This document shows positions 39,874 to 48,168 of a DNA stretch of 64,000 bases, piece by piece (position 1 is the stretch's first letter; every line of letters starts with the position of its first letter). Origin of the DNA: Nostoc sp. (GTDB lineage Bacteria > Cyanobacteriota > Cyanobacteriia > Cyanobacteriales > Nostocaceae). The DNA lies in NCBI RefSeq assembly GCF_036919895.1, contig NZ_JBALBW010000007.1, positions 39,435-103,434 on the forward strand, read 5' to 3'. A model generated the notes under the pieces. That model was not told where the DNA came from. It saw nothing but the letters and a program-made list of their open reading frames with translations, and ran no database searches. A program made the translations under genes and the position numbers.

Positions 39874-40083
39874 TGACAAATCGGTGTAACTGTGATATAT
39901 CAAGATTTGTTTAGGATCGTATTTTGCCATTTTCGCGCACCGTTAGTCTGTGGTGCTAATCTAAATAAGCTTGAAAGAGTAGAACTTGGTCGTTCTACTC
40001 CAGTAGCTATGATAGCTTTTGTAGGTACTTCAACAGGCTTTGTGATTTGTGTAAGTTTAACAAAATCTGCTAATAACTAATTT

Positions 40084-40208: not shown

Positions 40209-42686
40209 CTAAGGGTGATGAGCTAATCGCCGTAATAATATTGAGTTTGTGACGACGCTAACAGAGCTAAAAGCCATTAATGCAGCAGCACTAGATGGAT
40301 TAAGGACAAAACCCAGACTAGGGAACAAAACACCTGCTGCTAAAGGAATGCCAACTGTATTATATGCAAAAGCCCAGAATAAATTTTGGCGGATTTTTTT
40401 GAAGGTGGCACGACTAAGCTGAATAGATTCGACGACATCGTTTAGGCGATCGCGCATTAGGATAATTTCAGCAGTTTCCATCGCCACATCTGTCCCGGAG
40501 TGTAAAGCAATTCCTACATCTGCTTGGGATAAAGCTGGAGCATCATTGATTCCATCTCCGACCATTGCCACAACGGACTGGGGATTCGGTATCGGGGATT
40601 GGGTATTAGGCAGAATTTTCCCTAGTCGCCAGTCCCTAGTCCCCAATCCCTCTTTCTGGAGAGACTGGATTGCCGCCGCCTTTTTGGCTGGGGGAACACC
40701 TGCGATTACGTCAGTGCTGTCTAATCCTAGTTGTTTGGCTATGGCGTTAGCTGCTTCTTGGCGATCGCCACTGAGCAACATTACCCGTAGACCCATCTGG
40801 CGCAATTTGTCTACAGTCGATTGGGCATCTGGTCTGAGGGGATCGGAAACAGCAATTAGCCCAGCTAAAGTTCCCCCAACTGCTACACAAACGACTGTTT
40901 TACCATCCGTTGCTAAATCCTGTGCTAACTGTTGTGCTGTTTCGCTAATATCAATGCCGTGCCAACTCAACCAGTCCCAGTTACCTAACAATACAACCGT
41001 GTTTTCTACTACAGCAGAGATTCCCAATCCTGGTTCCGTGTGAAAGTCCACAGCCTCTGGAATAGATAATTTTTGCCTGAGTGCTTCTTGCTGAATCGCT
41101 TTTGCTAACGGGTGGTGAGTACCGTTTTCTACAGCTGCTGCTAGTTGTAATAGAGATTGGGAATTCCTAGTCCTCAGTCCCCAGTCCCCAGTCCCCGATC
41201 CCTCAATTAACAGACAATCTGTAACGATGGGATTACCTGTGGTCAGAGTGCCAGTTTTATCAAATACTACAGTGTCTAACTGGTGAACTTTTTCTAAAAC
41301 ATCACCGCCTTTGATTAACAAACCCCTCTCTGCGCCCATAGCAGTCCCGACCAGAATGGCTGTTGGGGTGGCAAGTCCTAAAGCGCAGGGACAGGCGACC
41401 ACCATAACTGCGATCGCTAGTTTTAAGCTGATTAATAGGGGAGAGTGGGGAACTTCATGTGTAGCGTGACCCATCATTTCCATACCACCAGACATGGTGA
41501 TATCAGTCCAGATGTGAGTGCCAAAAAAGTACCAAAAGACAAATGTTAATGCAGATGCTGTCAATACCCCGTAGGTAAAGTAACCAGCTACTGTATCCGC
41601 TAATTTCTGTACTGGGGCTTTCCGAGTTTGGGCGGCTTCTACTAAAGCGACAATTTGAGCTAGAGTTGTATCACTTCCAGTCCGGGTTGTCTGAATAGCG
41701 ATCGCTCCTGACTGATTTATTGTCCCCCCTGTCACCAAATCTCCTGGTTGCTTAATTACTGGCACGGCTTCCCCAGTCAACATGGATTCATCGACTGTTG
41801 TTTGACCAACCACCACTTCACCATCCACAGGGATTTTATCACCAGGCAGCACTTTTAACCATTCACCAACCCGCACCTGTTCAGCAGGAATCTCTACACT
41901 AGAAGATCCCACTCCGTCTTTTTCTGGGTTAGCAATCAATCGCGCTACCTGTGGCTGGAGTGCTAGCAATTTTCTAAATGCAGCAGCAGCGCGACCTCTA
42001 GCTTGTTGTTCTAATGTCTTTCCTAAAATAATAAAGCCCAGCATCATTACTGGTTCGTCAAAGAAGCACTCCCAACCCAATTGGGGAAACAGCAGCGCTA
42101 CTAAACTAGCAATGTAGGCTGTCAGTGTTCCTAATCCGATCAGGGTGTTCATGTTGGGCGCATTTCGCCGCCAGCCCAGCCAGCCGTCCACTAAAATCGG
42201 GCGACCAGGAATTAATAGTGCCACTGTCGCCAGTCCACAGTGAAACCAGATGTTATTTAGTAGTGGCAGCACTGAGCTACCAAGATTACCAAAATGTCCA
42301 CTTGCCGACAATAACAGCAATATTGCAGCGATCGCCAACTGCCTTAAAGAAGACTGCATTTCTCGGCGTTGTCGTTCTGCTGGGTCTGATAAGGTAGACA
42401 TCTCGCCTACTACTGTGCCCCTAGCTTTTCGGGGTTGAGTCGGGAATCCAACGGCTGTTAATTGCTGTGCTAGTGCATCTGCATCTACCGCACCAGTTTC
42501 TGACTCTACAACTGCTACCTCTGTAGCCAGGTTCACACAGGCACTCTTGACTCCTGGATGTTGGGTTAGCTGTCGTTCTACCGCATTCACACACCCAGCA
42601 CACTTCATGCCCCCAACATCAAGAATAATTTTCTCTATGATTGGGTCAAGTTCTGGGGCTAGCTTAGTTTTTGGGACAAGTTGCAT
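40209..42686 (-). CDS. ctaA: Copper-transporting P1B-type ATPase (CtaA-like)
   Basis: [51 protein letters not shown]. Confidence 0.92.
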
Positions 42687-45675: not shown

Positions 45676-45826
45676 ATGTTAAATTACAACCCATTGCACT
45701 GCTTACCCTCCGCCGAGGATCTGCCCGATTCTGACGATGAACCGGGCGATCGCTGCTGAACAACGCGCTCAAAGGTTGGCACAAGAATTACAAAGGTTGG
45801 GGATAGATCCAGATTCTTTGAGTTGA
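45676..45826 (+). pseudogene. Uma2-family gene with internal deletion (N- and C-termini joined out of frame)
   Basis: MLNYNPLHCLPSAEDLPDSDDEP joined at GGCGATCGC to AIAAEQRAQRLAQELQRLGIDPDSLS*. Confidence 0.8.
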
Positions 45827-46054
45827 TGTGGTTAATTCAGATAAACCTAGTCTTTGTTTGACTGATTGCCATGTTGAACCTTGGCTTGCGTTTTGGTGAT
45901 GTATCTCCAAGCGTCTATCTAATTCTTGTTTTTGGCCGTCGTTGAGAGGAACTTCATTGGGTGTAGTAAGAATGCTATCCCATAATTCCTGGGCAAGCTG
46001 TATACGTTCAGATACACTTAGTTCGGAAATATCGATTTTTATTATGTGGTGCAT
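45788..46054 (-). CDS. TIGR02574-like addiction-module antitoxin; no toxin, native stop apparently lost
   Basis: LSVSERIQLAQELWDSI..QKQELDRRL..TWQSVKQRL. Confidence 0.8.
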   Translation of the reverse strand: MHHIIKIDISELSVSERIQLAQELWDSILTTPNEVPLNDGQKQELDRRLEIHHQNASQGSTWQSVKQRLGLSELTTSTQRIWIYPQPL

Positions 46055-46349
46055 GGTTGTTGTTACAGCAGTTTTTTATCAAACCCACCACAAAAATAAA
46101 TCCCAAAACAAAGTCCAATATTGGTTTTAGTACTTTTAACTGTGGCACGTTTGATTAAAATTCGCTGTAATATAGTTACTCAATCGATACTAGTACATGT
46201 ATGTCTACGCATTTTATTTAAGGTTATGCGATCGCCTTTTAGACTCAAACAAGCAATATATTTTGATTCTTTGCTCTTTTTGATACACTAATGCCACTGT
46301 TAGATTAGAGTAGTGCATTAGACACAGCGTGACTTCGTAATTAGACTCA

Positions 46350-47471
46350 ATGACAAACATTCAGATTAAAGAACGCAAAGTTGTTGAACTTCATCCCCAT
46401 CCCAAAAATGACAGTATTTACGGCGACGAAGATATTGAGCAACTAGCCCAAGATATTAAAAGGTCTAAATGGGTCAAACCGCTTATTGTTACACCAGAGG
46501 GTACAATCATCAGTGGACATCGGCGTTGGAAAGCAGTGTCATCTCTTGGATGGACAACAGTTCCCGTTGAAGAAAAAGAGTTTACTGATGAAATAGCTGA
46601 ATTAGAAGCTCTGTTACTGGAGAATGCTAATAGAGAAAAGACTATAGAACAAAAATGTCGAGAAGGATTAACTTGGGAGGCTATTGAGCGAACTAACTCT
46701 CGTCAGCGTCAGGGAATTAAAGGATCTGGTGTGGGGACTACTAGGGATATGGTAGCGAAGAGGGTTAGTCTGGGAAGTGGTATTAATTATGAGAAGGCTA
46801 GTAAAGTTGTATCAACTATTGATGAGGCACTTTTAGTTGGTAATATTGCAAAAGCAGAGGCATTGCGAAAGACATTGAACCACAAAAGTGTAAATGCGGC
46901 TTTCAAAATGATTAGCAGTATTGAAAATATTAGTGAAACCCAACATAGCGAAACACAACACACACAAATGCAGTGGATATTAGCTAAGTTAGGTCAAAAG
47001 CTCTGTGGCTCAGTGTGGATTGCTTCTAACGATCGCTCACGTATATGGGAGAAAGAAAAATTAGGCAGCTTAAGTATGGATTCTTTGCCACAATTAGGAA
47101 TTCGTAATGATGCACAAAAAACAGTTGCACTTATTGATGTAGTTTGGCTGAGTGGTGATAATCAGATTACAGCAGCTTTCGAGATTGAATGTACTACGTC
47201 TATTTACTCAGGGTTACTAAGAATGGCAGATTTAGTTGCTCTTGTTCCAAATTTAAATTTTCCACTTTATGTAGTCGTTCCTCTGTCCCGTGTTGCGAAA
47301 GTTAAGAAAGAATTGTCTAGACCAAGTTTTCAAACTCTTAAAATGAATAATAAATGTAATTGGATAGTGCTTGAAGATTTAGTTCAAGAATGGGAAGCTA
47401 TTATGAAATATGGTACAGAATTAGATGCTATAAATAGATTGTCTCATAGCCTGAATAAGATTAAAAACTAA
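46350..47471 (+). CDS. ParB/Srx domain - HTH - restriction-endonuclease-like (PD-(D/E)XK) fusion
   Basis: PLIV..IISGHRRWKA and ENANRE (ParB); TRDMVAKRVSLGSG (HTH-like); C-terminal VWIASNDR, LIDVVW, AFEIECTTSIYSGLLRMADL. Confidence 0.8.
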   Translation: MTNIQIKERKVVELHPHPKNDSIYGDEDIEQLAQDIKRSKWVKPLIVTPEGTIISGHRRWKAVSSLGWTTVPVEEKEFTDEIAELEALLLENANREKTIEQKCREGLTWEAIERTNSRQRQGIKGSGVGTTRDMVAKRVSLGSGINYEKASKVVSTIDEALLVGNIAKAEALRKTLNHKSVNAAFKMISSIENISETQHSETQHTQMQWILAKLGQKLCGSVWIASNDRSRIWEKEKLGSLSMDSLPQLGIRNDAQKTVALIDVVWLSGDNQITAAFEIECTTSIYSGLLRMADLVALVPNLNFPLYVVVPLSRVAKVKKELSRPSFQTLKMNNKCNWIVLEDLVQEWEAIMKYGTELDAINRLSHSLNKIKN

Positions 47472-47535: not shown

Positions 47536-48168
47536 TTACCCTATCTGTCCCCTCACCCAAGCGCGAAATGATTTGAGCAAAGCAATTTCTCCCATACTTT
47601 TACTCTGCTCAATAAATCTGCTTATCTCACTCACTGAAATTATAGGAAAGGCAATACTAAACTTACACTCAATATATTGTCCCTCTATTAGTTGATAAAA
47701 TTTTAAATTTTGCCCATCATATCTCCAAAGTTCAGTTACACCCAATGCTGAATAAATACCGAATTTGTTAACTGAACTACTAGTAATATCAATCTCAATC
47801 GCTAAATCAGGTGGTGGATCTGTTTCTAAATTGAGCGTCATCCTACCTCTGACTATCGATTCACTTCGTATATAGTAGCAAGTATCTGGTTCTATTCCCC
47901 GTTTTGATATTTTACGCTTTAGTGTTGTAGAACCAGCACTTTTAATTTCTACTCCGACTTCTTCAGCTAAAGCGAATATAAAACGATCAAATTGAATTTT
48001 GGGGTTTTCATGTTCAAAAAGTGGAGTCATAATTTCTAAAACACCGCAGTCATAAGCAAACCGAGAACCTCTATCTTCACCTGTATCTCTCAGCAAGGCT
48101 TCAAAGGTTTCCCAGCTAACGTTGTGTAGGACTGTTCTTTGTTCAGCAGGCGTTGACTTAACAAGCAT
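47536..48168 (-). CDS. Uma2-family endonuclease
   Basis: LHNVSWETFEALL, GIEPDTCYY, PPPDLAIEIDITSSS, ELWRYDG. Confidence 0.92.
   Translation of the reverse strand: MLVKSTPAEQRTVLHNVSWETFEALLRDTGEDRGSRFAYDCGVLEIMTPLFEHENPKIQFDRFIFALAEEVGVEIKSAGSTTLKRKISKRGIEPDTCYYIRSESIVRGRMTLNLETDPPPDLAIEIDITSSSVNKFGIYSALGVTELWRYDGQNLKFYQLIEGQYIECKFSIAFPIISVSEISRFIEQSKSMGEIALLKSFRAWVRGQIG

Follow-up and report, generated by a model that had tools for sequence, protein, structure and literature searches.

The 64,000-nucleotide stretch of Nostoc sp. DNA analyzed here (hereafter the window; contig NZ_JBALBW010000007.1 of assembly GCF_036919895.1) contains a gene whose product appears, as judged from sequence, to be a new variant of the ParB fold joined to a nuclease: a ParB N-terminal domain (ParB_N) and a helix-turn-helix (HTH) region are followed, in one chain, by NmeDI_C, a putative cleavage domain of restriction-enzyme type homologous to the C-terminal part of R.NmeDI. 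The reading that we prefer, and that we hold to be possible rather than probable, is that this protein is an endonuclease which would be directed by its ParB head, would need no methyltransferase (MTase) and would act on foreign DNA. An earlier note on this DNA, made from the letters alone, had already proposed a three-part ParB/HTH/nuclease-like architecture. The open reading frame (ORF), its motifs PLIV..IISGHRR and ENxxR (here ENANR) and the C-terminal strings that were quoted are all present, and the architecture is borne out by Pfam, by Foldseek and by the homology of NmeDI_C to a proven restriction enzyme. A literature search turned up no paper on a ParB-NmeDI_C fusion.

A ParB-type head with an invariant pocket

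In Pfam, ParB_N (PF02195) is found on residues 22-92 (39.9 bits for a cut-off of 26.3, E 4.5e-10), the NCBIfam models TIGR00180 parB_part and Noc also match the head, and so do ParB, Noc and Spo0J chains of the Protein Data Bank (PDB) with an E value of 9e-9. In the AlphaFold2 (AF2) model of the whole protein, built on 84 sequences with a mean predicted local distance difference test (pLDDT) of 90.4, helices 99-120, 131-138, 144-162 and 166-178 form the HTH region, and a 39-residue helix (181-219) links this region into the C-terminal domain. Foldseek aligned the model to Noc, ParB, pNOB8 ParB and KorB over 196-222 columns (E 1.9e-7 to 1e-4). Because about 200-220 columns align to structures that include the DNA-binding domains, the likeness to ParB spans both the N-terminal domain and the HTH, and the segment previously described as HTH-like can be called ParB-type by its similarity to Noc, ParB and KorB. 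The protein begins 13 residues ahead of the ParB fold, without a ParA-binding N-terminal peptide, and the C-terminal dimerisation domain of ParB is replaced by NmeDI_C. Matches in PHROGs are limited to the ParB part, with none for NmeDI_C, and in PADLOC-DB v2 the fusion is matched only by the generic models REase_II and MTase_II (the latter on the ParB-like part) and by no system-specific model.

Regarding the nucleotide pocket, the P-motif of Box II, G56-H57-R58-R59, after which the box reads W-K-A, is invariant in 14 full-length homologues, 22 heads from viral contigs and 17 heads from cyanobacteria. Moreover, the pocket residues H17, N20, Y24, SGHRR, N92 and R95 are invariant across the same three groups, which speaks for a function of the head that depends on a nucleotide and has been conserved.

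A restriction-type C-terminal domain

The C-terminal part of the protein carries the family NmeDI_C (PF27126) in the precomputed Pfam annotation of a large protein collection, and the PADLOC REase_II model PDLC03534 matches residues 199-332 with an E value of 1.3e-10. This match covers only the C-terminal portion of the model (positions 173-312 of 351), the N-terminal half of NmeDI having no match in the fusion. When modelled alone by AF2 (pLDDT 93.9, predicted template modelling score 0.90), the domain shows in order a helix with H204 and Q208, a strand, an insert, a strand preceded by D263, a strand ending in E278-I-E280, a helix with R291 and D294 and a further strand (elements of the domain model: H2-25, E27-30, E70-73 with D263 just before it, E79-85 with E278 and E280, H91-104 and E112-116). 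PD-(D/E)XK nucleases have the same alpha-beta-beta-beta-alpha-beta succession; the domain carries ExE instead of ExK, as BamHI does. Topology and motifs together make a PD-(D/E)XK fold likely for NmeDI_C, and the D...ExE core anticipated by the earlier note was indeed recovered, with that strand order in the model. The R291..D294 pair might contact phosphate or a base, or stand in for the missing lysine. The conservation of these residues was counted in 243 aligned NmeDI_C domains from diverse relatives (Table 1).

This conservation bears directly on whether the protein cuts DNA at all. It could instead be a non-catalytic regulator of ParB or KorB type, or the centromere-binding relic of an integrated element, in which NmeDI_C would only dimerise or tetramerise: homologues are labelled partition proteins by NCBI, cyanobacterial plasmids and viral contigs commonly carry the head by itself, NmeDI_C sits at the exact position of the ParB dimerisation domain and R.NmeDI is tetrameric, and direct repeats lie upstream of the fusion gene. 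However, about 240 diverse members, the fusion clade included, keep to 98-100% the acidic and histidine residues that a metal-dependent active site typically has. The window has neither parA, nor a ParA-binding N-terminal peptide, nor other mobile-element genes, and the gene is chromosomal, at a locus fixed in several Nostoc species. We regard a purely structural role of NmeDI_C as unlikely, and the NCBI name as probably a misnomer. A function in plasmid partition was rejected, since parA is missing and none of 72,556 plasmids carries a full-length copy.

One putative cleavage module behind many heads

R.NmeDI, a tetrameric enzyme of Neisseria meningitidis with 351 residues, requires only Mg and has a preference for two sites in cis; its cuts fall 12/7 to either side of RCCGGY (PMC2095814). 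Such cutting away from the site implies that recognition and cleavage reside in separate parts. In a library of 1.84 billion proteins, the NmeDI_C family has 1338 representatives at E<=0.001; at E<=1e-10 there are 801. The domain is almost always C-terminal. The modules ahead of it are the ParB head, DUF3102, a weak Plasmid_parti_N-like HTH, pentapeptide repeats, a domain of about 220 residues or the N-terminal domain of CopL. A domain that keeps its C-terminal place while the heads before it, most of them DNA-binding, are exchanged fits best with a module for both cleavage and oligomerisation.

Two further contexts of the family were met. On two independent metagenome contigs, the genes of HmaB (DUF1156 methylase) and HmaC (DUF499 ATPase) flank one for an NmeDI_C protein of 421-441 residues, stop and start codons overlapping (L008:6001-7326 and L033:7001-8266), and SNF2, SIR2, GmrSD_N and HEPN genes are nearby; these NmeDI_C proteins have the look of a nuclease component, not yet listed, that some Hma defence operons contain. 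In cyanobacteria, a gene for an HTH-NmeDI_C protein of 325-345 residues directly follows, on two contigs, a gene for a protein of about 900 residues with UvrD_C_2 and pentapeptide repeats, flanked by toxin-antitoxin (TA) pairs (L048:4055-8038 and L050:4180-7978), and the two may form a two-gene system; a relative, P0073, fuses pentapeptide repeats to NmeDI_C. The link to EVE-fused nucleases suggested in the earlier note could not be verified, there being no EVE among the Pfam domains of the 120 best relatives, and the modification-dependent (type IV) variant of the nuclease considered in that note found no support.

The same head on viral-contig methyltransferases

Without NmeDI_C, the head (residues 14-190) is present on cyanobacterial plasmids (43-50% identity), in many filamentous cyanobacteria and on 26 IMG/VR contigs, which are predicted to be viral. 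A DNA MTase is C-terminal to it in half of the complete viral-contig proteins (11/22; N6_N4 in six, MT-A70 in three and Dam in two) and DUF5131 in four others. One of these proteins (L052:5920-7275) aligns with the window protein over 190 residues at 46% identity and then continues into a DPPY-type N6_N4 methylase. In general, the phage and prophage ParB-MTase fusions share the head subfamily with the Nostocales protein (33-46% identity over about 190 residues) and an identical signature, HPxN / IYGxED / ISGHRR / N..R / LGSGxxY. In contrast to theirs, the effector of the Nostocales fusion is a putative nuclease, and its gene is chromosomal and not on viral contigs. Among 17 heads from cyanobacterial genomes, two have a C5 methylase N-terminal to them and most others carry a Cys-rich segment; the proteins of about 1000 residues that combine a C5 methylase, the ParB-HTH head and a Cys-rich C-terminus are encoded at L089:6732-9782 and L108:5468-8482.

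A 2025 survey of ParB folds found MTase fusions to be enriched in prophages and HNH fusions, which it described as novel, to occur in bacteria (bioRxiv 10.1101/2025.10.10.680097). The latter resemble the present protein in joining a ParB_N fold to a nuclease in bacteria and differ in the fold of the nuclease. Restriction-type (NmeDI_C) fusions are not mentioned in the text of the survey, where the word "restriction" occurs zero times (bioRxiv 10.1101/2025.10.10.680097).

Distribution and evolution of the fusion

With one genome for each of 185,579 species, the full-length fusion was found only in about 11 Nostocales, namely eight Nostoc, two Dolichospermum and one Anabaena metagenome-assembled genome. 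Full-length homologues share 50-93% identity, and a strain-specific fusion is ruled out. No full-length copy was found in IMG/VR, as on the plasmids mentioned above, and NmeDI_C alone had no match in phage records. In its own genome the fusion is the sole match to the window protein, with no second protein of the head family.

The start methionine is common to the aligned full-length homologues. The whole gene has a ratio of nonsynonymous to synonymous substitution rates (dN/dS) of 0.20-0.35 against four orthologues, and every module of the intact copies is under purifying selection (dN/dS 0.12-0.44). Several Nostoc genomes retain only remnants at this locus: in G019, a deletion scar joins 30 bp (codons 54-63) directly to the last 45 bp of the gene (L027, 7563-7592 onto 7591 onward); in G010, a C-terminal piece of 128 codons with a stop is left (L023, 8542-8925); and short fragments persist in G003 and G002. 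Because of these remnants, the fusion gene must be old at the Nostoc locus and must have been lost repeatedly. Purifying selection and remnants, both read from sequence comparison, mark a functional yet dispensable gene. When the window gene is compared with its G011 orthologue (L021), dS is 0.14-0.19 in the head and 0.93 in NmeDI_C, the latter being as diverged as in distant orthologues, which indicates that the C-terminal module was swapped by recombination between the window type and the G011 type. Two C-terminal types can be told apart by their tails, ...SLNKIKN and ...FDSDS.

The surroundings of the orthologues were tallied in four distinct full-length neighbourhoods (window type, Nostoc sp. 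106C, Dolichospermum and Sphaerospermopsis), as the earlier note had proposed, and neither an MTase nor parA was found in any of the four. The orthologues of Dolichospermum and Sphaerospermopsis lie among TA genes, and GmrSD_N, HEPN, PIN and Panacea genes surround that of Dolichospermum. Another possibility is a nuclease of abortive-infection or toxin type, whose head, during infection or stress, would sense a change in the nucleotide pool or a state of the DNA and would turn a non-specific NmeDI_C against the chromosome of its own cell. In favour of this, the gene stands alone and lacks a protective MTase, it has been lost repeatedly, the ParB fold serves as a nucleoside triphosphate (NTP)-dependent toxin in contact-dependent inhibition systems (bioRxiv 10.64898/2026.05.05.722872), and TA genes (PIN_3, ParE/ParD and Unstab_antitox) stand beside several homologues. 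Yet a conserved partner serving as immunity protein or antitoxin was not found, neither Uma2 nor the adjacent antitoxin gene is co-inherited with the fusion, and the well-conserved ParB-type HTH argues for site-directed rather than indiscriminate action, so that an attack on self DNA seems improbable to us.

Upstream of the Dolichospermum and Sphaerospermopsis orthologues, a conserved pair of overlapping ORFs encodes proteins of 105 residues and of 122 residues, the second retropepsin-like with a DTG motif (L030:7182-7864 and L004:7182-7864). As operon partners these small ORFs were rejected, being absent in Nostoc and belonging to no informative family; the pair is probably an independent small module.

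Proposed mode of action

For the ParB-directed endonuclease that we favour, the steps from binding to cutting can be modelled on R.NmeDI and on ParB biology. The ParB-type head, combining an NTP-binding N-terminal domain with an HTH that would read a sequence, would take the protein to DNA, probably as a nucleotide-switched dimer or clamp. NmeDI_C, in place of the ParB dimerisation domain, would both oligomerise and, with Mg, cleave the DNA where the head has loaded or close by, by analogy with its presumed role in the type IIS-like tetrameric R.NmeDI. The host chromosome would be spared because cutting would be tied to loading sites specific to the head, possibly two of them in cis, and not to methylation. 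The likeliest targets would be Nostocales phages or plasmids with sites read by this head family. The NmeDI_C proteins of Hma operons and the head shared with viral-contig DNA MTases partly support such an endonuclease.

A more specific version would make the host nuclease the mirror of the phage ParB-MTases. Nostocales would have taken the loading head with which cyanophages and plasmids would bring DNA MTases to their own genomes, and coupled it to a type IIS-like cleavage domain. The protein would load at a parS-like site of the invader, close as a nucleotide-gated clamp and cut the DNA that it encircles. Host methylation would then be unnecessary, and the protein, a head-for-head answer of the host to phage ParB-MTases, would be the first case in which a ParB-type switch brings a nuclease to DNA. 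We consider this version rather unlikely, and the idea of an arms-race partner is a conjecture because no phage, plasmid or viral contig was found to carry the fusion.

ParB-fold switches are now known beyond chromosome segregation, in toxins and in fusions to MTases and HNH nucleases. If the fusion does cut DNA, the ParB N-terminal domain and HTH joined to a restriction-type cleavage domain would be a new output of this switch, in a compact single-gene system for studying how a ParB head directs an enzyme to DNA. Moreover, the head occurs in a matched pair, on viral-contig MTases on one side and on a putative nuclease in host chromosomes on the other. NmeDI_C itself connects a characterised restriction enzyme with a protein that may belong to Hma defence operons and with CopL, from the classic copper-resistance cluster of pMOL30, and its function, once known, would annotate more than 1000 protein clusters.

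Several observations weigh against the favoured endonuclease. In the head, Box I is divergent, with K19-N20-D21-S22 for the canonical Q-P-R; the glutamate of GERR, on which CTP hydrolysis depends in canonical ParB, is the invariant His57; and E91 of Box III is replaced by R or K in the clade of Dolichospermum and Sphaerospermopsis. Because of these three changes, hydrolysis and clamp cycling may differ from those of ParB or be absent. In addition, the NTP specificity of a ParB fold is not predictable from sequence or AlphaFold3 (bioRxiv 10.1101/2025.10.10.680097). The window locus is no classical defence island, surrounded as it is by suf genes, a CPBP protease gene and a copper ATPase gene. 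More generally, the fusion clade is small and its function wholly inferred.

The fold of NmeDI_C is a further point of this kind. Pfam at E<=5 and a PDB profile search gave no match to the C-terminal domain, and the best Foldseek match in the PDB, BsaWI, is non-significant (E 0.054 for the whole model, 0.42 for the domain by itself); the PD-(D/E)XK assignment of the earlier note, upheld by motifs and strand order, is in this respect not confirmed. SgrAI, BstEII, BamHI, XPF/FAAP24 and Mus81 follow, in a list enriched in nucleases and likewise non-significant, and against BFVD the matches were ERCC4, MmcB-like and similar proteins, all with E >=0.05. That BsaWI and SgrAI, the best if non-significant fold matches, belong to the CCGG family suggests another reading, an orthodox restriction enzyme in which NmeDI_C itself would read RCCGGY-like sites and whose MTase would act in trans, for example the orphan rCCGGy 5-methylcytosine (m5C) methylase DmtD. 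R.NmeDI recognises RCCGGY, most group B cyanobacteria have an orphan DmtD and rCCGGy is under-represented in their genomes (PMC4390886), and NmeDI_C is unusually conserved, with 50-60% identity across phyla. On the other hand, cutting 12/7 outside the site fits recognition by the N-terminal half of R.NmeDI, and NmeDI_C stands behind many unrelated DNA-binding heads in genomes and plasmids without a linked MTase. We give protection in trans the slimmest chance of the explanations considered.

Finally, the contexts of the family on plasmids point away from defence. All 179 matching plasmid records match through the NmeDI_C domain. In each of the 13 neighbourhoods that were opened, genes for resistance to copper or other heavy metals lie within 6 kb of an NmeDI_C gene of CopL type, and a DNA MTase lies beside none of the 13. 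These plasmids represent six phyla (Gluconobacter, Komagataeibacter, Deinococcus, Rhodococcus, Hymenobacter, Leptolyngbya, Cupriavidus, Enterococcus, Listeria, Paraburkholderia, Streptomyces, Sphingobium and Runella; L034, L035, L037-L040, L041 and L042-L047). Metal resistance, and not restriction-modification or defence, is the largest annotated plasmid context of NmeDI_C. The family is therefore not confined to restriction or defence, and the annotation "type II restriction endonuclease", often given to these CopL-like genes of about 420 codons, weighs less. The member on pMOL30 of Cupriavidus metallidurans (L041:5242-6507, pMOL30 180704-181969) is copL of the cop cluster; the published coordinate 181,548 falls inside RMET_RS30570. 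CopL and the window protein are 35% identical in the C-terminal domain only (BLASTP); within the CopL-like proteins, 35-40% identical to it, the same invariant H, D, ExE and R are kept.

A role of the fusion in metal stress, in DNA repair, processing or regulation, with the copper-type P-type ATPase 3.7 kb upstream (40209-42686, CPC motif) as its functional neighbour, would agree with these contexts and with the relatedness to CopL. However, no such ATPase lies within 8 kb of the orthologues in Nostoc sp. 106C, G011, Dolichospermum and Sphaerospermopsis, and the steady metal-resistance neighbourhood of CopL was not found for the ParB-fused clade. In the window itself, CPBP, TM2 and opposite-strand antitoxin genes intervene between the ATPase gene and the fusion. 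Moreover, the N-terminal domain of CopL, of about 240 residues, is unrelated to the ParB head, and copL is not copper-induced in strain CH34 (PMC7563307). A metal-related function appears very unlikely to us. What probability remains is left to an explanation outside those discussed here.

Comparison with known systems

The fusion and R.NmeDI have in common the homologous C-terminal domain of about 175 residues, C-terminal in both, which likely serves in both as a Mg-dependent oligomeric cleavage module acting away from the recognition site. In place of the N-terminal half of R.NmeDI, the fusion has a ParB N-terminal domain and an HTH, and RCCGGY recognition is not expected of it; it also lacks the overlapping m5C methylase gene and the Vsr gene.

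The parallel with GmrSD and SspE drawn in the earlier note holds for the layout, since in all of them one chain combines a nucleotide-binding domain of the ParB superfamily, a DNA-binding middle part and a C-terminal nuclease (putative in the fusion), with no MTase of their own. It does not extend to kinship at the level of families: the fusion has a canonical ParB_N (GHRR, ENxxR) whereas they have DUF262 (DGQQR), and NmeDI_C of PD-(D/E)XK-like type whereas they have HNH/DUF1524. Indeed, no Pfam match to PF03235 (DUF262) or HNH and no PADLOC match to GmrSD or SspE was found in the fusion, which, having neither domain, lies outside these families and is an analogue only.

With the canonical CTP clamps ParB, Noc and KorB, the fusion shares the fold of the N-terminal domain and HTH, Boxes II and III and a self-associating C-terminal domain (putative in the fusion). 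It differs from them in having no ParA partner or ParA-binding peptide, in the changed Box I and hydrolytic glutamate and in its restriction-enzyme C-terminal domain, and, unlike ParB, its gene is neither on plasmids nor at an origin-proximal par locus.

The locus and its neighbours

Table 1. Coordinates, in the window, of the fusion gene, its domains and key residues, and of adjacent features
Feature	Position	Strand	Evidence or remark
ParB_N + ParB-type HTH + NmeDI_C fusion, whole gene	46350..47471	+	ORF list; 373 aa, ATG start
ParB N-terminal (ParB/Srx, "CTPase") domain, residues 1-98	46350..46643	+	Pfam PF02195; PDB ParB/Noc; Foldseek
Box II / P-motif (GxxR), G56-H57-R58-R59	46515..46526	+	His at the position of the canonical catalytic Glu
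Box III (ENxxR), E91-N92-A-N-R95	46620..46634	+	N92 and R95 invariant in homologues
ParB-type HTH DNA-binding region and helical linker, residues ~99-198	46644..46943	+	AF2 helices; Foldseek
NmeDI_C (PF27126), putative PD-(D/E)XK-type Mg-dependent cleavage/oligomerisation module, residues ~199-373	46944..47468	+	Precomputed Pfam; PADLOC; AF2
H204, first helix of NmeDI_C	46959..46961	+	H in 241/243 family domains
D263, start of core strand 2 ("PD" position)	47136..47138	+	D in 243/243
E278-I-E280, end of core strand 3 ("(D/E)XK" position, ExE here)	47181..47189	+	E278 in 242/243, E280 in 240/243
R291..D294, helix after strand 3	47220..47231	+	R291 in 242/243, D294 in 240/243
Upstream leader, possible operator: three TTAGACWC direct repeats and TTAGATTAGAG	46239..46348	+	Just before the start codon; weak evidence
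Orphan Unstab_antitox / TIGR02574 antitoxin-like gene, context only	45788..46054	-	Pfam and NCBIfam; gene present in only some orthologous loci
Uma2 (PD-(D/E)XK-family) gene, convergent neighbour, context only	47536..48168	-	Pfam Uma2 E 7e-22; PADLOC candidate PDC-S17 E 1.5e-40

Between positions 40000 and 54000 of the window, the neighbours of the fusion gene are the CPC-motif heavy-metal (copper-type) P-type ATPase, a TM2 protein, a CPBP protease, an orphan Unstab_antitox gene, one Uma2 gene and sufS/D/C/B/R. In this interval the ORF list, Pfam and NCBIfam revealed no MTase, ParA or replication gene, as the earlier note had stated, and the window holds no further mobile-element genes. The accessory patch described there is thus correct as to the orphan antitoxin, CPBP and sufS, and its plural "Uma2 genes" reduces to a single adjacent Uma2.

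Two neighbours were considered as partners of the fusion and rejected. Uma2 adjoins it in every Nostoc locus, including the rearranged context of Nostoc sp. 106C, but at least five Nostoc genomes that lack the fusion gene have an orthologue (86-89% identity) adjoining sufS. Because such genomes keep Uma2, it is not a dedicated partner; at the Nostoc locus, Uma2 has a fixed place next to sufS, and the fusion gene lies beyond it. This position of Uma2 beside sufS is kept throughout the genus Nostoc, with tandem duplicates in G020, G008 and G012. As for the orphan antitoxin, most orthologous loci have no such gene.

Scans for inverted repeats, promoters and terminators around the fusion gene gave nothing beyond chance. 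Of six matches to TTAGACWC in the whole 64-kb window, three fall in the 110-bp leader, and these repeats are kept in three close Nostoc orthologous loci and not in Nostoc sp. 106C. A HIP1 site (GCGATCGC) lies upstream of the fusion gene, at 46229-46236.

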